In this document: one piece after another, positions 40,663 to 51,330 of the stretch
How positions within the stretch are numbered: position 1 is the first letter of the stretch
How the letters are laid out: each line of letters begins with the position of its first letter
Source of the DNA: an uncultured Roseburia sp.
Lineage (GTDB): Bacteria; Bacillota; Clostridia; Lachnospirales; Lachnospiraceae
Reading direction: 5' to 3'
DNA: 64,000 nucleotides
Assembly (NCBI GenBank): GCA_964486485.1
Contig: CAZAMD010000003.1
Location: 15,366 to 79,365 of the forward strand
Position numbers and translations under genes: made by a program
The notes under the pieces: model-generated
Seen by the model: the letters and a program-made list of their open reading frames with translations, nothing else
Told to the model about the DNA's origin: nothing
The model's database searches: none

Positions 40663-41535
40663 CTAACGGCAGTCGCCGAAGTAGAAGAGCGCCACCGTTC
40701 CCGGACCGGAGTGGGAGCCGATGGTAGGTCCGATATAATCGATGAGGAAATGCTCGAGCCCCAGCCGTTCTTTGATCAGATCGGCCACAAACTGGGCATC
40801 GGAGGCACAGTCCCCGTGGCTGATGCATACAAGGTTATTTTTGTCCTTCCAGGAGCCGATCTGCCGCTCCATGCAGTCCACAAGCCCGATCAGGGATTTT
40901 TTGCGCCCGCGCACCTTGTTCATCAGTACCAGATGGCCCTCATTATCTACATGGAGAACCGGCTTTAAGTTGATCATCGTCCCTAAGACGGCGGCAGTTT
41001 TTGAGAGGCGTCCTCCCCGGTGCAGATGGAACAGATCGTCTACCGTAAAATTGGAGACCAGATGCAGCTTGTTCTCTTCCAGCCAGGAAACGATCTCTTC
41101 TAGGGATTTCCCCTCCTCTTTCATCGTCACTGCCTGATGGACAAGGAGGCCTTCCCCGAGCGTAGCGCCGAGGGAATCCACGACTATGATGCGGGTGCCG
41201 GGGTGTTTTTCACATACTTCCTCTGCGGCCAGGCGGCAGTTATTGAAGCTCCCGCTCATGCCGGAGGAAAAAGCGATATGGAGAATGTCCACGTCCTGCT
41301 CCGTTAAGATGTCCTCAAACATCTTTGCTGCCTCCTGCGGATTTACCTGAGAGGTGGTGGGCAGAGAGCCGGCTCTCATTTTATCGTAAAATTCTTTTAC
41401 CGGCATGGGATTCTCCAAAGTATAAGTCACGCCTTCCATCGTATAGGGCAGGGACATCAAGCGCAGGTCATGCTTCTTTACATACTCCGCAGGCAGGTCT
41501 GCGGTAGTATCCGTTGTGATAATAAAATCTTTCAT
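40663..41535 (-). CDS. DegV family fatty-acid-binding protein
   Basis: ITTDTTADL, PTTSQ, SSGMSGS, HLHRGGR, HSGPG. Confidence 0.93.
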   Translation of the reverse strand: MKDFIITTDTTADLPAEYVKKHDLRLMSLPYTMEGVTYTLENPMPVKEFYDKMRAGSLPTTSQVNPQEAAKMFEDILTEQDVDILHIAFSSGMSGSFNNCRLAAEEVCEKHPGTRIIVVDSLGATLGEGLLVHQAVTMKEEGKSLEEIVSWLEENKLHLVSNFTVDDLFHLHRGGRLSKTAAVLGTMINLKPVLHVDNEGHLVLMNKVRGRKKSLIGLVDCMERQIGSWKDKNNLVCISHGDCASDAQFVADLIKERLGLEHFLIDYIGPTIGSHSGPGTVALFYFGDCR

Positions 41536-41693: not shown

Positions 41694-41722
41694 TTTACAT
41701 TTTTAGTACAATGGGGTAAGAT
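41694..41722 (+). promoter_or_regulatory. putative sigmaA promoter of Tad-like locus
   Basis: TTTACA-17bp-TAAGAT, ~430 bp upstream of first pilin-like gene. Confidence 0.5.
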
Positions 41723-41872
41723 ATAAATATCTTTTTATCAATTTTGTGGACTGATCAGATGCATCCCTGCGGATATCTTCCGTTTGCCTGCAGGAGACAG
41801 AGGTCCGTATCGTGCGGGGGCAGAGTCCCTCATCTATTTATGATCCCAAGATACCCAGTCAAGCGAAAATCG

Positions 41873-41980
41873 GGAAGTCCTTGTGCGCGGGAAGCTGCGC
41901 CTGCCGCGGAATCCGGGCGGAAACATGGAAGTCCTTGTGCGCAGGAAACCGCGCCTGCCGCAGAATCCGTGTGAAAACGA
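41873..41980 (+). repeat. 54-bp direct tandem duplication
   Basis: GGAAGTCCTTGTGCGCRGGAA..GCGCCTGCCGCRGAATCCG.. at 41873 and 41927. Confidence 0.85.
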
Positions 41981-42151
41981 GGAAAAGCGATGCATCAGGC
42001 TTAGAACGGAAAAACCGGAAAAAACAATAAGAAAATAAAAAAACGTTCCATGCAGCGCAGCATGCGCGCCATGTCTGCGCGGCAGGGGGAGGAAGATGGA
42101 AGCCCGCTCCGTAGCTGCGGGGCATGGAACAATTGCGATCGGAGGTAAATT

Positions 42152-42334
42152 ATGGAACAGGTAATGAAACATTATGGAAGCGCGATCCTTGCGGTGATAG
42201 TATTGCTGGCCTTAGGCGCCATTATCGCGGCGGCACTCTCATCAGACGGTTATGTGGCCGAGGAGTTTAAGGAAGCCTTGACCGGATTTTTTGATAACAT
42301 GAATGCCATAGGAAAAGGGACGCCGCAGGCTTAA
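42152..42334 (+). CDS. small pilin-like (Flp-like) protein, putative major subunit
   Basis: 60 aa, GGAGG RBS, N-terminal hydrophobic helix then amphipathic tail; first gene before CpaF ATPase. Confidence 0.7.
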   Translation: MEQVMKHYGSAILAVIVLLALGAIIAAALSSDGYVAEEFKEALTGFFDNMNAIGKGTPQA

Positions 42335-42362
42335 GCGGAATGCGTTTCTGACAAGCAAATGG

Positions 42363-42396
42363 ATCATAGAAAGGCCTTTTCGTGCCTTTCTATGAT
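42363..42396 (+). promoter_or_regulatory. perfect 13-bp stem hairpin between pilin-like gene and ATPase
   Basis: ATCATAGAAAGGC-8nt-GCCTTTCTATGAT; no U-tract on + strand. Confidence 0.6.
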
Positions 42397-42416
42397 AAAA
42401 AAGGATTGGAGGTCCA

Positions 42417-43478
42417 ATGAAAGAATTAGTATTTACGCCCAGTGAAGAGCAGTTTGGAGTTTTCTGGAAATATCTCTCGATCCCGGAAGTGACAGATGTG
42501 GACTACAATGGAAAGGAACTGTGGATTACCCACTTGAAAAAGGGCAGATACCGGGCAGAAGAGGAAGTAAGCGAAGCCTTCCTCAGCGCCTTTACGCATC
42601 ATATTTCCAATTGTGTCAACAAGCAGTTTAACAATGCCAATAAAATCTTAGAGGCGGACACGAAGGAGCTGAGGATCAGCATTCTTCACGATTCCGCGGC
42701 AACGTCAGGCATCTCTGTCTGCATCCGCAAATCTCCGGCATTCGTCCGCAACACGATAGACCATATGATAACAAGCGGCTTTTGCCCCGAAAAGATACTG
42801 CATCTGCTCATCAACTGCGTTCTGGCAAAAATGAATTTCATATTTGGAGGGGAGCCGGGAGCGGGAAAAACGGAGTGCGCCAAATTTTTTATGCAGTTTA
42901 TCCCAAAGGAAGAGCGGGTGATCACCATTGAGGATTCCCTGGAAATCCATTATGCGGATATCAATCCGGGAGCGGATGCGGTGGAGCTGCGGATATCGGC
43001 GGGCTTTACCTATACGGATGCGATCAAAGCCTGCCTGCGGCAGAATCCCAGATGGCTGATGCTATCGGAGGCAAGGTCTGTGGAGGTGACTTCCCTCTTA
43101 GAGCAGTGGAGTACCGGAGTGAACGGGTTTACGACCATTCACTTAGACGATCTGCGGAAGCTGCCGGACCGGATCCAAAATATGATGGATAACGTCAGCG
43201 ATGCGGACCGGATGGAAAATCGGATCTACCGCTATATCAATGTAGGGATTTTGATACGGCGCATGGAATTGCCCGATGGGACCATCCGCCGCTATATGGA
43301 TCAGCTCTGCTTTTATGCCAGAGAGGAAGAAAAAAATAAAGTTTACCTGATGATGAAAGACGGAGAGCTTGTCTCAGAGCAGATACCGCAGGATATCCTG
43401 GAAAGGCTGCGGTACGCGGGGATCGGAAATCCTTATGACTGTAAACAGATGGCAAGGTACCGGAAGGAGGGAAGGTAG
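42417..43478 (+). CDS. CpaF/TadA/VirB11 family secretion ATPase
   Basis: Walker A GEPGAGKT, Asp box TIEDSLEI, LRQNPRWLMLSEAR (Walker B), TTIH. Confidence 0.88.
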   Translation: MKELVFTPSEEQFGVFWKYLSIPEVTDVDYNGKELWITHLKKGRYRAEEEVSEAFLSAFTHHISNCVNKQFNNANKILEADTKELRISILHDSAATSGISVCIRKSPAFVRNTIDHMITSGFCPEKILHLLINCVLAKMNFIFGGEPGAGKTECAKFFMQFIPKEERVITIEDSLEIHYADINPGADAVELRISAGFTYTDAIKACLRQNPRWLMLSEARSVEVTSLLEQWSTGVNGFTTIHLDDLRKLPDRIQNMMDNVSDADRMENRIYRYINVGILIRRMELPDGTIRRYMDQLCFYAREEEKNKVYLMMKDGELVSEQIPQDILERLRYAGIGNPYDCKQMARYRKEGR

Positions 43479-43479
43479 G

Positions 43480-45018
43480 TTGCGCAAAAATGGGGTGGGA
43501 GAAAAAGTAAAGTTACTGAATCTGAAAAATTTAGAGAAAGAAGTGCATAAATATGGCTATCACTGGTCCTGGCAATCCCATGTCCTGCTCACCGCCGGGG
43601 CTTTGCTTGGGATCGGCACTGTTGGGATCGTTTTTCAGCTTAAAATGGGATACTTGGCCGCAGTCATGGCAGTGATGCTGTTTCTGCTTCCGGTGTTTGT
43701 CATAGACGTATTCCGCAAGATGTTTGAGCAGAAGCGGTTTTCTGACGCGGCGACTTATATGGAGCAGATCTTGTATTCTTTCCAGAAATCGGGAAAGGTG
43801 CTGATCGCCCTGAAAGAGACGCGGGAGCTGTTTGAAGAAGGGCGGATGCGCGAAGTGATACAGGAAGCGATCTGGTACATAGAGCAGGGATGCGCGAAGA
43901 CAGAGGGCGGCATTCTGCGGGAGGCGCTCCACCTGATCGAAAAAGCTTACAGATGCAGTAAAATGCGCATGGTGCATGACCTGCTCATCAGCGCGGAACT
44001 CTATGGCGGAGAGACGGGTGAGTCGAGCATGCTCTTGCTGGAAGACTTAGAGCTTTGGAAGCGGAGGGGGTATCAGCTGCAGAAAGATAAAAAAGTCAGC
44101 CATAGGGACAATATCGTGTCCATTGTTGTGGCGACCGTTCTCTCCGCCGCTGCGCTTTATGTGCTGGATGCCATGAAAGGAATGTTTGCGGAGAGAAGTT
44201 CTTCCTTCCAGATATTTCAGGTTGCCGTCATTCAATGTTCTTCTCTGTTCTTCATCTTATTTTCCCTGTTTGTTTTTGCGAAAAGCACAAAAAGCCTCAC
44301 CAGAAACTGGTTAAAAGAGGAGGGGGCGAGAGAGATAAGCTACATTCTGGCAAGCTATCAGATGGTGGTGGGCTATGATGAGGGAAAGGCAAAAAGAAAG
44401 AGTCTTTTCTGGGCGGCTCCTTTTTTCGCGGGGGCGGCAGTCCTCTGCTTTTTTCAGAAGAAATGGTTTTGCGCAGCCTTTCTGGGCGTAGGGAGCTTTT
44501 TGCTCCTGCAGTATAAAGCCGGATATGCCATAGCGAAGAAGGACGTCACAGAAGAGCTCTACATCGCGTTTCCTCAGTGGCTGATGGAGATCGCGCTGCT
44601 GCTGCAGAGCAACAATGTGCAGATGTCCATTCAAAAATCGGTAGGGCAGGCGCCGGAAGTCTTAAGGCCGGAGCTGGAAAAACTGGTGGAGCGGCTGCGG
44701 GAGGAGCCGGATAAGCTGGCATCCTATACGGATTTCTGTAAAGATTTTGATATTCCGGAAGCGGCAAGCTGCATGAAAATGCTCCATGCCATTTCAGAGG
44801 CGGGAACCGGAGATGCCAGAATACAGATGCACGAGCTGATGAAGCGTGTCAGTGAAATGCAGAATATGGCAGATGAGATCAAAAACAGGAATATTTCCTT
44901 TCGGATGAAAATGATATTTTCCTATCCGGTGATCGCAGCTACCGTGAAATTACTGATCGACCTGACCGTTGGAATGTTTTATATGTTCCGCATGTTAGGC
45001 AGTCTGGGAGGTGTCTGA
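43480..45018 (+). CDS. TadB/TadC-like (two platform domains) membrane protein
   Basis: Follows ATPase directly (TTG after GGAAGG); two repeats of TM pair + cytoplasmic helical domain (FSDAATYMEQIL; AFPQWLMEIALLLQ). Confidence 0.62.
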   Translation: MRKNGVGEKVKLLNLKNLEKEVHKYGYHWSWQSHVLLTAGALLGIGTVGIVFQLKMGYLAAVMAVMLFLLPVFVIDVFRKMFEQKRFSDAATYMEQILYSFQKSGKVLIALKETRELFEEGRMREVIQEAIWYIEQGCAKTEGGILREALHLIEKAYRCSKMRMVHDLLISAELYGGETGESSMLLLEDLELWKRRGYQLQKDKKVSHRDNIVSIVVATVLSAAALYVLDAMKGMFAERSSSFQIFQVAVIQCSSLFFILFSLFVFAKSTKSLTRNWLKEEGAREISYILASYQMVVGYDEGKAKRKSLFWAAPFFAGAAVLCFFQKKWFCAAFLGVGSFLLLQYKAGYAIAKKDVTEELYIAFPQWLMEIALLLQSNNVQMSIQKSVGQAPEVLRPELEKLVERLREEPDKLASYTDFCKDFDIPEAASCMKMLHAISEAGTGDARIQMHELMKRVSEMQNMADEIKNRNISFRMKMIFSYPVIAATVKLLIDLTVGMFYMFRMLGSLGGV

Positions 45019-45350
45019 TGAAGCATATCATAAGCGTGTTTGGGACGTTGTTGCTCCTGCTGATAAACGCCTGTGTCTGTATCGGCACGATGACGGCCGC
45101 CAGCGAAACCGCGGCGGCAAAGGAATACAAAGCGGATGTCATAGCGGAAATCGAGAACAGCAATTTCAATCCGAGGGTCATCACGTCATGCATCGCTCAG
45201 GCAGAGAATGCCGGATATAAGATGGAAGTAAAGAAATCCGTGGATGTGAACAATGAAGTAAAGACGGCGGAAGTGGTGCTGTCCTACTCTTATGAAATAC
45301 CCATCTTCGGGATCTCACAGACGAAAACGACAAGGGGGATCGCCAGATGA
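45018..45350 (+). CDS. single-pass pilin-like/TadE-like protein
   Basis: Overlapping TGATG coupling; N-terminal TM; C-terminal beta segment SYSYEIPIFG. Confidence 0.65.
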   Translation: MKHIISVFGTLLLLLINACVCIGTMTAASETAAAKEYKADVIAEIENSNFNPRVITSCIAQAENAGYKMEVKKSVDVNNEVKTAEVVLSYSYEIPIFGISQTKTTRGIAR

Positions 45351-45404
45351 GTCGGAGGAGAGAGCCAGAGGAACTGACAGATCATAGATTGGAAGGGGGA
45401 TAAC

Positions 45405-45512
45405 ATGAATCAGATCGTTTCAGAAATAGGAGAAGCCCTCGCGGCAATTTTATCAGGAACCGCGGTGCTGTCCGTGTTTGCGGCAGTGCTGCATTATGCC
45501 ACATCATTTTAA
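45405..45512 (+). CDS. 35-aa hydrophobic pilin-like microprotein (not in ORF track)
   Basis: MNQIVSEIGEALAAILSGTAVLSVFAAVLHYATSF; AAGGGGG RBS. Confidence 0.6.
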   Translation: MNQIVSEIGEALAAILSGTAVLSVFAAVLHYATSF

Positions 45513-45530
45513 GAAAGGGGAGAGGCCGCG

Positions 45531-45677
45531 ATGGAAGAAGTCATAGAACACTTTGGGGAGAGCCTGCTCTGCCTGCTCTCGGGGGCGGTTCTCCTGCGGT
45601 TTTTTGCCGCCTGCCTAAAAGAGGGCGGCATCTTGTGTGAATTAGTCAGGAATTTTATGGAAAGCATCTGCGGCTAG
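45531..45677 (+). CDS. 48-aa pilin-like microprotein (not in ORF track)
   Basis: MEEVIEHFGESLLCLLSGAVLLRFFAACLKEGGILCELVRNFMESICG; GGAGAGG RBS; similar layout to the 42152 protein. Confidence 0.68.
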   Translation: MEEVIEHFGESLLCLLSGAVLLRFFAACLKEGGILCELVRNFMESICG

Positions 45678-45741
45678 GCGCGTATCTATACGGGCCAGCC
45701 GCGGTTTGGAGGAGAAGATTGAAAATCGAAATTTTCAATCT

Positions 45742-45781
45742 TTTATGGAAAGACCGCCTGACGGCGGCAGAATGAGAGGAA
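45742..45781 (+). repeat. 40-bp RBS-containing dispersed motif, copy 1
   Basis: TTTATGGAAAGACCGCCTGACGGCGGCAGAATGAGAGGAA. Confidence 0.85.
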
Positions 45782-45783
45782 AG

Positions 45784-46281
45784 ATGGAACACATAATACA
45801 GATCTATGGAAAAGTTTTTGTCAGCGCGGCAGCGGCAGTGTTATTGGCTGCGCTTCTGCTTGGGAGGATAAGCGACAGGCAGGGGAATCAGGGGATTCTC
45901 TCAATGGCTGGCGCTCATCTGTCTGCGGTCCTGCCGCCTTCCGGGACTCCGGAAGAATTCCGCACCGTGGATGCGGAAAATCAAAAGAAAGCGCCGGAAA
46001 TCTTGTTTCAGCAGAAAGATTCTTTTTACGCTGGGAAGATAAAGATCCTGGAATGGATAAAGGCGGTGGACTATCAGGGGAGGGAGCTTCCGGTAAGGCT
46101 ATTAAAGCTGGAAAATCCCGATGGAGACGACATCACAGGGCAGTATCATAAGGAGGACGGGTGGCTGGAAATGACAATGCCGGGCATCTATACGATGACA
46201 GTGTGGGCGTTGGATGAGGATAACCGGAAGACCGTAGCGGCCATTCATCTGCCCGTAAATCCGGTAAGGAGGCTCTCTTGA
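45784..46281 (+). CDS. single-pass protein with Ig-like C-terminal domain (minor pilin-like)
   Basis: MEHIIQIYGK + TM; KAVDYQG...PGIYTMTVWALDEDN beta-sandwich pattern. Confidence 0.65.
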   Translation: MEHIIQIYGKVFVSAAAAVLLAALLLGRISDRQGNQGILSMAGAHLSAVLPPSGTPEEFRTVDAENQKKAPEILFQQKDSFYAGKIKILEWIKAVDYQGRELPVRLLKLENPDGDDITGQYHKEDGWLEMTMPGIYTMTVWALDEDNRKTVAAIHLPVNPVRRLS

Positions 46282-46886
46282 AAAATATCGCTGCCATGAT
46301 CACAACTATCATGCTGGGCGTGCTGCTGCTTTTGGTCGTGCTGTCGCTGGCAGGCAGGATGAATCGGAGTGCGGAGCTGGAAAGCAATCTGGCTTCCGTG
46401 GTGGAAGAAACCGTGGAAAACATGGCGCTTGATCCCAAGTATGAGATCCATAACGAAAAGGAGTTTCTTTCCGATTTCACAGAGCATCTGTCCGCGAGAT
46501 TAGATGCCTCCGCCGAGGTTTGCGTCGAGATTGAGAAAGCGGGGGAGAAAGAGGGCATTTTGTCTGTGAAAGTGACAGAAACATTTTTGCATCCCAACGG
46601 AAAATCGGGAACGGTATCGTGTCACCGTACAGTCATTTTAGAGAAATGCCGGGAAGAGGAAGCGCAGGAGATTGCGATAACATTCTATTCGTCAAAAGAA
46701 GAGATGGAAAAGGGGGGAATCTGCTATAAATCTTATCGTATAAAGAAAGGAAGCAGGATCCTTTCACCGCTGCCTCCGGAAAAGGCGGGAAAGACGTTTG
46801 ACGGCTGGCGGGATGCGGCGGGAAACAGGGCGGATCTTTCAGCGGCTGTAAAACAGGATAGCAGTTATTATGCCGCATGGAAATAA
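46278..46886 (+). CDS. single-pass protein with C-terminal InlB B-repeat-like (Listeria-Bacteroides repeat) domain
   Basis: N-terminal TM; P.KAGKTFDGW...YYAAWK. Confidence 0.65.
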   Translation: MKNIAAMITTIMLGVLLLLVVLSLAGRMNRSAELESNLASVVEETVENMALDPKYEIHNEKEFLSDFTEHLSARLDASAEVCVEIEKAGEKEGILSVKVTETFLHPNGKSGTVSCHRTVILEKCREEEAQEIAITFYSSKEEMEKGGICYKSYRIKKGSRILSPLPPEKAGKTFDGWRDAAGNRADLSAAVKQDSSYYAAWK

Positions 46887-46915
46887 GACGGATTTTATGA
46901 AAAGGAGGAGAAGGG

Positions 46916-47089
46916 ATGGTTTTTATTATCATATGTCTGATGGCAATTTTGATAGTAGCAATGGCATGTTTCCTGGTAATTGGCATAGCGGTTTTCTGTA
47001 TAGGAGCAAAAACGCTTTCAAATAAAGGAGCTGATAATAGAGGAGCTGATTTTACACTCCCAACAAAAAGATCAACCCGATTTTTATAA
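46916..47089 (+). CDS. 57-aa hydrophobic small protein (not in ORF track)
   Basis: MVFIIICLMAILIVAMACFLVIGIAVFCIGAKTLSNK...; AAGGAG RBS. Confidence 0.5.
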   Translation: MVFIIICLMAILIVAMACFLVIGIAVFCIGAKTLSNKGADNRGADFTLPTKRSTRFL

Positions 47090-47297: not shown

Positions 47298-48581
47298 TTA
47301 TTCCTCGATAGTAACCATATCCGAAGGAACTTCCGGTTTTTTGATGTATATTTTTTCGATACGGTTCTTGTCCATCTGCTCTACCCGCAAAAGAATGTTG
47401 TCGTCTGTGACGATCACTTCATTTTTTTCCGGCAGATGATCCAGCAGACCGATCAGATAGCCGCCGATGGTATCATAGTCTTCAGAGATAAAAGGCAGAT
47501 CCAGCTTTTCACACAGATCGCCCAGATTGGTAGAGCCATGTACGATAAATTCACGCTCATTCAGCTGCACGATGGGGTCTTCCTCGTCCTCGTCGTACTC
47601 GTCACGGATCTCTCCCACGATCTCCTCCAGCAGGTCCTCCATGGTGATCAGGCCGGCGGTGACGCCGTACTCATCAAGGACGATGGCAAGGGAAACGGAA
47701 GATTTCCGCAGATCCATCAAAAGCTCGGCGGTGTTTTTGTGTTCGTAAGTAAAATAAGGCTCCCGCATGATGGAACGGACGGAAAAATGTTCCTTGTCCG
47801 TGCATAAAATGAGATCTTTGACATTGACAATGCCAATGACGTCGTCAATGGACTCCTCATAGACCGGAAGCCGCGTGAACCGGTCTTTCTTATAAAGCTC
47901 GATCAGTTCGTCATAAGTACTGTCTACATGGACGAAGGTCATATCGATGCGCGGGATCATCACTTCCTTTGCCTGGGAATCTCCGAAATCAAAGAGATTG
48001 TTGATCATCTCATGCTCGTCGGATTCTATGACGCCGGTTTCTCTGCTGACATCTACAATGGTGCGCAGCTCTTCCTCGGTCATCTGCTGGGCCACATTGT
48101 TGGGGTTGACCCGCAGAAGCCGCAGAAATCCCAAGGAAATGTGATTGATCAAAAAAATGACCGGAGTGAGGATCTTCATTAAAACACCGATGGCGCCCGC
48201 ATAGCGTAAAGAGATCTTTTCGGAATGTATGGTTGCCAGAGTCTTAGGGGAAATTTCACCAAATATCAAAATAAGAAGCGTCAGAACTCCGGTAGCAATC
48301 CCGGCTCCTATGCTGCCCCACCATCTGAGTGCAAGGGAAGTCGCGAGGGAGGAAGCGGAAAGATTGACGATATTGTTTCCGATCAAAATAGCACTGAGCA
48401 TCTTGCCGGAATCTTCGGTGATGCTGAGTACCCGCTTTGCCCGTTTGTCCCCGGCTTCTGCGAGGGTCCGGATGCGTATCTTATTTGATGTGGTCAGAGC
48501 TGTTTCTGCGGAAGAGAAAAATGCAGAAAGGATCAATAAAAGAATTAAAATGATAATCTGGGGTATGGCGTCTGCGTCCAA
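47298..48581 (-). CDS. HlyC/CorC (CNNM + CBS) family transporter
   Basis: SAFFSSAETAL, FGEISPK, EVMIPR, DEYG...EDLLEEIVGEI, TIGG. Confidence 0.93.
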   Translation of the reverse strand: MDADAIPQIIILILLLILSAFFSSAETALTTSNKIRIRTLAEAGDKRAKRVLSITEDSGKMLSAILIGNNIVNLSASSLATSLALRWWGSIGAGIATGVLTLLILIFGEISPKTLATIHSEKISLRYAGAIGVLMKILTPVIFLINHISLGFLRLLRVNPNNVAQQMTEEELRTIVDVSRETGVIESDEHEMINNLFDFGDSQAKEVMIPRIDMTFVHVDSTYDELIELYKKDRFTRLPVYEESIDDVIGIVNVKDLILCTDKEHFSVRSIMREPYFTYEHKNTAELLMDLRKSSVSLAIVLDEYGVTAGLITMEDLLEEIVGEIRDEYDEDEEDPIVQLNEREFIVHGSTNLGDLCEKLDLPFISEDYDTIGGYLIGLLDHLPEKNEVIVTDDNILLRVEQMDKNRIEKIYIKKPEVPSDMVTIEE

Positions 48582-48669: not shown

Positions 48670-50421
<1,752 letters not shown>

Positions 50422-50508
50422 ACGGTGCCTGCCCAAATGGATATTCACAAATGCAGGAATGTATGCTATGATGGCAGCAGGCGCAAAAACGCGCCGCGCA
50501 AAGTCCCC

Positions 50509-50548
50509 TTTATGGAAAGACCGCCTGACAGCGGCAGAATGAGAGGAA
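50509..50548 (+). repeat. 40-bp RBS-containing dispersed motif, copy 2
   Basis: TTTATGGAAAGACCGCCTGACAGCGGCAGAATGAGAGGAA (1 mismatch to copy 1). Confidence 0.85.
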
Positions 50549-50550
50549 AA

Positions 50551-51330
50551 ATGGAATTTCGGCCCTGTATAGATATTCACAATGGGAAAGTAAAGCAGAT
50601 TGTGGGAGGAACCCTAAAAGATGCGGGCAGCCTGGCAAAGGAAAATTTTGTTTCCGGGCAGGATGCGGCATATTATGCCAGACTCTACCAAAGGCAAGGG
50701 ATCCGGGGCGGCCATGTCATCTTGCTGAATCCCGCGGGCAGCGAATACTATGAAGCCACAAAAAAACAGGCCTTGGGGGCATTGAACGCATATGCGGGCG
50801 GCCTGCAGGCTGGCGGAGGGATCACGGCGGAGAACGCAGAGGCGTTTTTAAACGCCGGAGCCAGCCATGTCATCGTGACCTCTTATGTCTTTGAGGGCGG
50901 CAAGATACATTATGAGAATCTTGAGAAATTAAGGCGGACCGTGGGGAAAGAGCATCTGGTGCTGGATTTAAGCTGCCGAAAAAGGAACGGTTCTTATCAT
51001 ATCGTGACAGATCGCTGGCAGCGGTTTACAGAGGAAACTGTCCGGGAGGAACTGCTAGAGGAGCTCTCATCATACTGTGATGAATTTCTGGTCCATGCGG
51101 TGGATGCAGAGGGAAAAGCCTCCGGCATTGAGGAGGAACTGGCAGGGATCCTTGGAACATGGGGGAAAATCCCCATTACCTACGCGGGCGGCGTGGGAAG
51201 CTTTTCGGATCTTGCCCTGCTGCGGAAAGCGGGGAGGAACAGGCTGCATGTGACCATCGGGAGCGCCCTGGATCTATTTGGCGGGCCGATGCCATATGAG
51301 GAAGTGCTCGATTATATCGGTAAGGAGTGA
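50551..51330 (+). CDS. hisA: ProFAR isomerase, eukaryote His6-like type
   Basis: FRPCIDIHNGKVKQIVGG, LVLDLSCR, HAVDAEG, TIGSALDLFGG. Confidence 0.9.
   Translation: MEFRPCIDIHNGKVKQIVGGTLKDAGSLAKENFVSGQDAAYYARLYQRQGIRGGHVILLNPAGSEYYEATKKQALGALNAYAGGLQAGGGITAENAEAFLNAGASHVIVTSYVFEGGKIHYENLEKLRRTVGKEHLVLDLSCRKRNGSYHIVTDRWQRFTEETVREELLEELSSYCDEFLVHAVDAEGKASGIEEELAGILGTWGKIPITYAGGVGSFSDLALLRKAGRNRLHVTIGSALDLFGGPMPYEEVLDYIGKE

Follow-up and report, generated by a model that had tools for sequence, protein, structure and literature searches.

Can a type IV filament be built without a prepilin peptidase? The question is raised by a locus in a 64,000-nucleotide stretch of DNA, hereafter the window, from an uncultured Roseburia sp. 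(GenBank assembly GCA_964486485.1, contig CAZAMD010000003.1, positions 15,366 to 79,365). Type IV filaments are held to share four universal parts, namely a pilin with a class III signal, a prepilin peptidase, an ATPase, and a platform (PMC10191384). Within the window, positions 42152-46886 of the plus strand are a single tightly coupled operon of eight genes, g1-g8 (Table 1), in which genes for an ATPase (g2) and a polytopic platform (g3) stand among genes for small pilin-like and single-pass proteins. The original prediction, made from the sequence without database searches, read this operon as a non-canonical Tad/Flp-like system, minimal and possibly independent of a peptidase. Together, the ATPase, the two-domain platform, and the pilin-like subunits point to a machine of the type IV filament kind, and we consider it likely that the locus encodes a pilus machine of this superfamily, with a reading in which the subunits stay uncleaved as the favored one. 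The system is best filed as an undescribed variant within the superfamily; in our literature searches, it was not described, and DUF4320, Flp1-like, and DUF5702 were not mentioned.

To establish which genes belong to the system, we used 70 related loci that were collected by a pattern scan based on aligned platform homologues and that are nearly all labelled Roseburia or Lachnospiraceae. When the window proteins were compared with the open reading frames (ORFs) of these loci by phmmer, orthologues were found in 63 loci for g1, 66 for g2, all 70 for g3, 65 for g4, 29 for g5, 59 for g6, and 63 each for g7 and g8. For the 35-aa g5, inspection by eye reveals a gene with the same motif at that position in most loci, and both position and motif are kept in distant loci. 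Gene order is identical across the 70 Roseburia-type loci. In 13 loci from other genera of Lachnospiraceae, most of it is retained, though some of these loci have fewer minor-subunit genes or carry them in a different order; the comparison of synteny across the family that had been proposed as a check thus came out in favor of the operon. Public gene calls of the isolates R. yibonii BX0805 and R. hominis An869, both cultured carriers of the locus, are identical to the ORFs in every letter, the 35-aa and 48/49-aa genes among them. A g5 homologue that matches it in length and start has been called publicly on at least 1000 contigs, as have g6-type genes of 48-49 aa. The conserved order, the orthologues, and the public gene calls lead us to regard g1-g8 as a real conserved operon. 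A Shine-Dalgarno sequence precedes every gene from g1 to g8, and stop and start codons overlap at g3/g4 and g7/g8, in keeping with the operon-like run described originally, for which the coordinates, lengths, and quoted N-termini all match ORFs in the sequence. The count of downstream proteins differs: an ORF that follows g8, here g9, has no homologue in the 70 related loci (phmmer) or elsewhere in the genome and no family match, so that there are five downstream subunits rather than the six further single-pass proteins first listed, and g9 probably lies outside the system.

Among the nine ORFs, searches of Pfam and NCBIfam returned usable matches only for the ATPase and for a repeat in g8. 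The g2 protein scores 67.5 bits against Pfam T2SSE (cut-off 24.9) and thus supplies the PF00437-family ATPase that is characteristic of type IV filaments, with Walker A, Asp-box, Walker B Glu, and His-box columns that are 80-100% conserved in its 66 orthologues. Its best NCBIfam scores are with VirB11 (93.5 bits), TrbB (73), the TadA family (71.6), FlaI (50.5), and ComGA (49.6); every equivalog cut-off is missed, that of the Tad model TIGR03819 by a wide distance (71.6 vs 373 bits). When compared to solved proteins, g2 is about as close to the VirB11 protein HP0525 of H. pylori (66 bits) as to Archaeoglobus GspE (65.5 bits), with CpaF at 52 bits, and it shares 28% identity with the canonical CpaF that this genome also encodes. 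In public records, g2 goes under the names CpaF or TadA. Its T2SSE score, above the cut-off, and the conserved catalytic motifs place g2 in the superfamily that also includes VirB11, CpaF, and archaeal GspE.

The platform is much harder to recognize from its sequence. No Pfam family matches g3, a PF00482 search of the genome misses it, and T2SSF is matched weakly in 14 of 30 homologues (best 3e-6). In an AlphaFold2 model of g3 (pLDDT 82.5), residues 83-197 align with the N-domain of PilC (Z 9.6, rmsd 3.0, 103/103 residues aligned), residues 82-210 with the cytoplasmic domain of EpsF (Z 9.3), and residues 352-475 with SpoIIIAB (Z 9.9), which has the GspF fold. These values lie under about Z 13, the level from which structural matches between helical bundles become trustworthy, and they carry weight because all three are platform-family domains and are covered as whole domains. 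Foldseek placed a chain of the type IVa pilus (T4aP) machine model 3jc8 at the top for g3 (E 7e-3); at E 0.001 or better, it found no match for the g3 or g4 model, and for g4, it returned nothing useful. At the profile level, a TadB profile made from 30 loci of Lachnospiraceae gives collinear alignments with each half of g3, over 155-171 columns with P ~3e-3, at a probability of 10-12% compared with 95.7% for the TadB and TadC profiles against each other (hhalign). By the same method, the g3 profile gave no significant match to the single TadB and TadC sequences of this genome, the TadB and TadC profiles do not tell which half is TadB-like, and the two halves do not detect each other. A profile search of g3 against PDB sequences gave PPR-repeat matches only, and these were set aside as spurious. 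The model suggests that g3 is an unsplit platform, very divergent in sequence, in which two domains have the T2SSF fold. The two TadB/TadC-like halves of the original prediction therefore stand only at the level of fold.

In some relatives, the platform is found in a longer protein. Several Roseburia genomes have the platform match within an open frame of 835-883 aa (G080:C35:18974-20506, G059:C27:43087-44619, G024:C78), and two more (G004:C33, G022:C3) have platform-containing frames of 868-872 aa that are each broken by one stop; several cluster representatives of 710-820 aa (P0258, P0227, P0212, P0267) have 220-310 extra N-terminal residues. The long frames are about the size of ATPase plus platform, and natural fusions of the two may therefore exist.

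We next consider the subunits, beginning with g4. Its AlphaFold2 model (pLDDT 80.5) consists of a helix at residues 2-47, a second helix at residues 52-64, and a three-stranded sheet, and in a search of 48,161 representative chains, 12 of the top 50 matches were type IV pilins or pseudopilins. They are led by GspK (Z 6.6, rank 1), TTHA1218 (5.9), S. sanguinis PilB (5.8), and EpsI (5.7), with PilA4, PilX, PilV, and gonococcal pilin also in the top 50. With moderate confidence, the model suggests that g4 has the pilin-like "lollipop" fold expected of a type IV filament subunit. A lead from a protein atlas to DUF4320 (0.90) was rejected, as PF14208 finds nothing in this genome. The g1 protein consists of MEQVMKHYG, ~20 hydrophobic residues, and a short amphipathic tail, and it has no pilin match in Pfam or NCBIfam. 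Flp_Fap, Flp1_like, and TadE are likewise unmatched by any subunit of the window or by ten distant homologues, even at E up to 10 (Pfam). PF04964 finds nothing in this genome, and no subunit of the locus has the features of a Tad pilin, i.e., membership of the Flp families PF04964 or PF16982 and G|xxxxE[YI]. A prediction of a four-copy g1 complex scored 0.01 in a run without controls and has no weight either way.

The g1 and g6 families cross-match in phmmer. The g6 family ends in F-M-x-[SG]-I-C-G at the extreme C-terminus, 70-90% conserved and unusual for a pilin-like protein, and this motif might mark a modification or a disulphide partner. The two largest subunits carry candidate adhesive domains. 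For g8, which begins MKN... without the Y-G motif of the other subunits, Pfam Flg_new is matched at 21.1 bits (E 3.5e-4) and TIGR02543 at 20.2 bits, just under its cut-off of 20.95; two distant homologues give the same sub-cut-off repeat match, and one g8 homologue is named "InlB B-repeat-containing protein" by NCBI. For g7, one homologue has weak matches to InlK_D3 (E 0.005) and PKD, and the extracellular domain of g7 is possibly Ig-like. Of the Ig-like and B-repeat proteins proposed at the outset, the B-repeat protein is thus supported by a repeated match just below the cut-off and by the NCBI name, while the Ig-like domain depends on the weak match of a single homologue.

The feature that sets these subunits apart is their N-terminus. 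In Roseburia, the g1, g5, g6, and g7 families retain Met1 and conform to the conserved pattern M-E-x-[IV]-[IM]-x-x-[YF]-G, and the g4 family begins M-K-H-I-I-x-x-F-[SG] (57-66 orthologues each for g1, g4, g6, and g7; 30 for g5; MKHIISVFG in the window g4). Met1 agrees with the public gene calls. The M-x(6-7)-[YFI]-G pattern followed by a hydrophobic helix, noted originally in five subunits, is present as quoted and conserved from Met1. The 13 loci of other genera include 40 subunits with Gly at position 9, whose consensus is M-K-E-I-[ILF]-E-E-Y-G-x-x-[IL]-[IL], and 14 ORFs that have it at position 10, of which ~9 are of the g4 class and the rest look incidental. An alignment of 39 g1 sequences at 19-85% identity has an invariant Met1 and Tyr8 and Gly9 at >=90%. 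Across paralogues and genera, Met1 and Gly are a constant 8 residues apart (9 in the g4 class), and the N-terminal segment is acidic or neutral rather than basic and better conserved than the hydrophobic helix that follows.

A comparison with 14 classical Flp genes from other Clostridia suggests what this segment may correspond to. The clostridial Flp proteins read ...E-K-G|Q-G-M-V-E-Y-G-L-I-I..., with leaders that vary in length. Aligned by hhalign with the mature and with the precursor Flp profiles, the g1 family adopts one register, in which MKHYGSAILA is paired with MVEYGLIIAV (P 3e-5 and 6e-5). In this register, the Y-G of the subunits corresponds to Tyr6-Gly7 of Flp (Glu5-Tyr6-Gly7) and not to the Gly at -1 of the cleavage site, and the proteins would thus start about two residues before the mature Flp start. 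By eye, the g4 class appears to stand in the same relation to the V-E-F motif of TadE N-termini (I-[KE]-x-F). Residues 2-47 of the g4 model are one helix, with a mean pLDDT of 84-89 across the first 20 residues. The fixed length, the conservation, the acidity, and the confident helix at residues 2-20 of g4 fit an N-terminus that is kept. On balance, we lean slightly toward the view that M-x-E-[IV]-[ILFM]-x-x-[YF]-G corresponds to the start of mature Flp (x-x-x-[IV]-E-Y-G) and is not a cleaved leader.

In the mechanism that we favor, the machine would operate alongside the cell's canonical Tad and T4aP systems. The subunits would be made "pre-matured," would insert in the membrane N-in/C-out, and would be assembled without a prepilin peptidase. 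The single g3 platform would offer its two cytoplasmic T2SSF-fold domains as the docking site for a hexamer of the g2 ATPase, and ATP-driven movement of the platform would lift subunits from the bilayer into a helical fiber that crosses the wall. The Flp-like, 60-aa g1 would be the bulk subunit, a candidate major pilin, while g4-g8 would form a priming or tip set in which g7 (possibly Ig-like) and g8 (InlB-type B-repeat) may expose adhesive domains. Where present, the hairpin that follows g1 would raise the g1 message relative to the messages for the machinery.

The strong hairpin reported originally is confirmed as a perfect 13-bp stem. Its stability is ~-19 kcal/mol, it is followed by A-rich sequence without a U-tract on the plus strand, and the 106-nt spacer in which it lies folds at z -2.7. 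Of the related loci in which g1 and g2 are >=50 nt apart, 22/23 have a hairpin of -17.5 kcal/mol or stronger, whereas in ~38 others the spacer is <=34 nt and the hairpin is absent. The hairpin is thus an optional feature of the operon family. Its recurrence argues for a function, e.g., attenuation or 3' stabilization of the g1 message, which lends some support to the earlier suggestion that it keeps g1 in excess, while its absence from the short-spacer loci speaks against that suggestion as a general rule.

Whether the subunits could be cleaved depends on the peptidases that are available. The window locus contains no gene for an A24 peptidase, CpaB/RcpC, or TadZ (Pfam and NCBIfam, nine ORFs), as had been noted, and no A24 homologue was found in 93 related loci covering 1.04 Mb, in a search for which the positive control, the genome itself, worked. 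The genome-wide search for A24 peptidases that the original prediction called for did, however, recover three genes in this assembly (81% complete), none in the locus, so that candidate peptidases are available in the cell. One is PilD-like and lies in a T4aP cluster on contig 23, beside PilB, PilT, and PilC; the other two are short, TadV-like genes in a canonical clostridial Tad locus on contig 13. With the window locus, the Tad locus, and the T4aP cluster, this ~2-Mb genome thus encodes three type IV filament systems. The absence of A24 genes from the locus and the 93 related loci speaks for peptidase independence, and the three A24 genes elsewhere speak against it. The contig 13 locus (L074:6880-16118, minus strand) contains an A24 gene, a TadZ-like gene, CpaF, TadB, TadC, Flp1_like, DUF5702, a second A24-like gene, and a DUF6382-FHA protein, and its Flp1_like protein carries E-E-D-G|I-G-V-V-E. 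The T4aP cluster lies at ~19.7-25.3 kb of contig 23, and a lone PilT-like gene is found on contig 57.

Several observations weigh against our interpretation. At the sequence level, the platform and subunits are tied to T2SSF, Flp, and TadE only weakly or not at all, the match between g1 and Flp spans only 9-10 columns at 64-73% probability (hhalign), and the structural matches of g4 all lie below Z 8, a range that possibly reflects just a common arrangement. The class III signal is defined in general terms as a hydrophilic leader ending in Gly or Ala and followed by 20-25 hydrophobic residues, with Glu5 optional and the leader variable in length, and formally, M-x7-G with ~20 hydrophobic residues is a short leader of this kind without Glu5 (PMC10191384). 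The initial statement that the subunits lack a basic leader and G|xxxxE is correct. A24 genes occur in 80/81 genomes of the genus, in 32/32 of those of high quality, and in all four checked carriers of the locus among isolates and metagenome-assembled genomes; with A24 near-universal in the genus, its co-occurrence with the locus is uninformative. One genome, G033, has two loci and no A24 match, but its completeness is just 80%. T4a pilins likewise have leaders that are short and of conserved length. The hairpin is missing in over half of the loci, and filament formation, adhesion, and the role of the hairpin are inferred.

The same machine may instead assemble conventional prepilins, each with a 9-residue M-x7-G leader that is cut after Gly9 by an A24 peptidase encoded elsewhere, such as the PilD-like enzyme of contig 23 or a TadV-like enzyme of contig 13, to give mature pilins without Glu5. 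We grant this alternative somewhat less than an even chance. It gains from the >=90% conservation of Gly9 with the hydrophobic stretch directly after it, from the A24 genes of this genome and the genus, from a definition of the signal that permits variable leader lengths and no Glu5 (PMC10191384), and from the precedent of MSH loci, which have no peptidase of their own and probably borrow one (Denise et al., PMC6668835). However, such a leader would be acidic or neutral and would carry an aromatic residue at -2, where clostridial Flp and Flp1_like are basic or polar (E-K-G, E-D-G), and the segment is more conserved than the hydrophobic helix after it; the hhalign alignments favor the other register, and g5, if cleaved, would be left as a 26-residue peptide. 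The reading that we prefer, in which leaderless pilins are assembled without a prepilin peptidase, comes near to even odds on these sequence comparisons without reaching them, and we propose only tentatively that the conserved M-x-E...[YF]-G N-terminus is the assembly determinant of a filament made without any prepilin peptidase.

Other explanations change the nature of the machine itself. Instead of an adhesive pilus, the operon could encode a short pseudopilus or piston that, like a type II secretion system (T2SS) or ComG, exports proteins through the wall or takes up DNA. This seems to us unlikely: although the order of ATPase, platform, and small pilin-like genes resembles comG, several subunits are tiny (35-60 aa), and the ATPase matches ComGA weakly, this match (49.6 bits) is far under the cut-off of 300 and below the VirB11, TrbB, and TadA scores, g8 has a B-repeat of the surface-adhesin type and g7 a possible Ig-like domain, and the conserved locus has no gene for DNA uptake or for an obvious exported substrate. 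Very improbable, in our view, is an origin outside the type IV filaments altogether, as a filamentous prophage remnant, a spoIIIA-like channel, or a conjugation module. The hydrophobic g5 weakly matches Inovirus coat protein B (E 0.0065), but the inovirus or prophage reading was rejected on the lack of any PHROGs match with known function. One platform domain matches SpoIIIAB, but this is a GspF-fold protein, the other platform domain matches PilC and EpsF, and the spoIIIA reading was rejected on the lack of a SpoIIIA match in NCBIfam. The best ATPase matches are indeed VirB11 and TrbB, but the locus has no replication, integrase, relaxase, or coupling-protein gene, and its core setting is syntenic across the genus.

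Among the known systems, Tad/Flp (type IVc) pili resemble the locus in their inventory. Both have one small ATPase of the bifunctional type, from the CpaF/VirB11 clade and without a PilT partner; in both, the first gene encodes the Flp-sized major subunit (55-60 aa; putative in the locus), several larger pilin-like proteins are minor subunits, and the genes form one compact operon. The Y-G motif of the subunits aligns with E-Y-G of Flp. The differences are substantial. Here, one 512-aa platform, as in nearly all 900 clusters of its family, takes the place of separate TadB and TadC proteins and is barely detected by T2SSF and TadB profiles; the subunits have no Flp_Fap, Flp1_like, or TadE match and no leader ending in G|xxxxE; TadV, TadZ/CpaE, and DUF5702 are not in the locus; and the system is restricted to Lachnospiraceae (59/400 genomes), whereas canonical TadB is found in 114/121 genomes of that family. 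With a fused platform and subunits unmatched by the Flp, Flp1_like, and TadE models, the term non-canonical in the original prediction is supported. The proposed ancestors of Tad are archaeal type IV pili, Epd-like and relatives (Denise et al. 2019, PMC6668835). Like g3 as modeled, their platform is unsplit, ~500 aa long, and built with two T2SSF-type domains, an architecture also seen in PilC/GspF; g2 is about as similar to Archaeoglobus GspE as to VirB11, and archaeal pilins, too, need not have Glu5. In contrast, the system described here is bacterial and confined to one family, no EppA/PibD-type peptidase is encoded in the locus, and archaeal leaders are basic, with K/R at -2.

ComG resembles the locus in its monoderm host, in the order of ATPase, two-domain platform, and small pilin genes, and in having its peptidase (ComC) encoded elsewhere. 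It differs in that ComGA scores far under its cut-off and ComGB and ComGC find no match here (NCBIfam), the ComGC-type K-G|F-T-L-x-E is lacking from the subunits, the major-subunit gene precedes the ATPase gene, and B-repeat and possibly Ig-like domains are carried on subunits. MSH pili are similar in that the locus has no peptidase and other type IV filament systems of the genome encode one (PMC6668835), but their pilins have canonical class III signals and they belong to the T4aP/T2SS clade of diderms. SpoIIIA has no NCBIfam match in the nine proteins, and the likeness is limited to the fold of one platform domain. The machine would work in the manner of a Tad or archaeal-type pilus, but the features that would place the locus within a described Tad, ComG, or SpoIIIA system were not found.

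The distribution of the platform is narrow and patchy. It was found in 68/81 genomes of the same genus (28/32 of the high-quality ones) and in 59/400 Lachnospiraceae genomes, corresponding to 55/347 genera, while in a phylum-wide sample of 400 genomes, it occurred in only one, itself from Lachnospiraceae; none of the ~390 sampled genomes from outside the family has it. With TadB near-universal in the family and the platform patchy, the system is best viewed as an addition to Tad and not a replacement of it. Several genomes have two or three copies of the locus. A search of 1.84 billion cluster representatives with the platform profile gave 900 proteins at E<=1e-3, of which 383 reach E<=1e-30; nearly all are ~500 aa, and the 900 are clusters at 50% identity. 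The genus holds two platform classes, one of ~510 aa that scores 700-900 bits and one of ~470 aa that scores ~300 bits. The ~470-aa class is without the first ~40 profile positions and is the sole form in many genomes, including G047, the one complete single-contig genome in the sample.

In 37/93 related loci, we observe an extra gene of ~190-215 aa directly upstream of g1 (L005:4038-4640, L035:4102-4734, L071:4149-4709, and 34 others), so that the label "minimal" in the original prediction was an overstatement for the family. The product of this gene has the N-terminal pattern I-A-F-x-G-x5-G-T-[ST]-x-N, no Pfam match, and a weak lead to ParA/MinD in the protein atlas (0.87), and it could be a degenerate TadZ-like accessory protein. 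It is absent from the window, and tblastn found no copy in this 81%-complete genome.

The lineage appears to keep a very divergent ATPase and platform together with pilins in which a fixed, acidic N-terminus of 8-9 residues replaces the normal leader. If the subunits are indeed not cleaved, this would be the first natural lineage of type IV filaments without one of the four components regarded as universal, and it would bear on why leader removal is needed and on how the platform recognizes and extracts pilins. The system escapes standard annotation: PF00482 does not pick up the platform, and public entries label this protein and every subunit "hypothetical protein." Nevertheless, most Roseburia species and ~15% of the Lachnospiraceae genera that were sampled carry it, frequently with 2-3 copies; its subunit genes occur on >1000 gut metagenome contigs, and it is a candidate colonization or adhesion factor of major butyrate-producing gut Lachnospiraceae.

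Table 1. Genes and other features of the locus, in positions of the window.
Feature	Position	Strand	Details
g1, Flp-sized subunit, 60 aa	42152-42334	+	first start codon of ORF; GGAGG 6 nt upstream
Hairpin between g1 and ATPase gene	42363-42396	+	13-bp perfect stem, 8-nt loop
g2, secretion ATPase, 353 aa	42417-43478	+	T2SSE (VirB11/CpaF/archaeal GspE) superfamily
g3, polytopic platform, 512 aa	43480-45018	+	TTG start per public gene call
g4, pilin-fold protein, candidate minor pilin, 110 aa	45018-45350	+	start overlaps g3 stop
g5, 35-aa subunit, N-terminal motif and one hydrophobic helix	45405-45512	+	ribosome-binding site (RBS) GGAAGGGGG
g6, 48-aa subunit, g1 paralogue	45531-45677	+	N-terminus MEEVIEHFG, C-terminal ICG
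g7, 165-aa single-pass subunit (from ATG), extracellular domain	45784-46281	+	N-terminus MEHIIQIYG
g8, 202-aa single-pass protein, C-terminal Listeria-Bacteroides (InlB-type) B-repeat	46278-46886	+	TTG start, AAGGAGG upstream
g9, 57-aa hydrophobic ORF, probably outside the system	46916-47089	+	no homologue, no family match

The operon is flanked by two genes on the minus strand, a degV-like gene at 40663-41535 and a gene for a CBS-domain transporter at 47298-48581. This setting is part of the core chromosome, with purF/purB/degV on one side and the transporter gene and guaB on the other, and related loci have the same downstream neighbor. The longest ORF of g3 runs from 43369 to 45018, and the public gene call is the shorter one, with 512 aa from the TTG at 43480.

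Upstream of g1, the sole promoter-like site is at 41694-41722, ~430 nt away. The long untranslated stretch in between contains, at 41830-41990, two imperfect direct copies of a ~55-nt unit that reads GTCCTTGTGCGC.GGAA.C.GCGCCTGCCGC.GAATCCG... and was not reported by TRF. A second repeat is found near g7, where the 26 codons upstream of its ATG in the same ORF (45706-45783) read ...FMERPPDGGRMRGK-M. A near-identical peptide, FMERPPDSGRMRGK-M, precedes the start of a hisA-like gene at ~50550 (region 50236-50560), and thus, a repeated element of ~40 nt that ends in an RBS precedes both g7 and the hisA-like gene.

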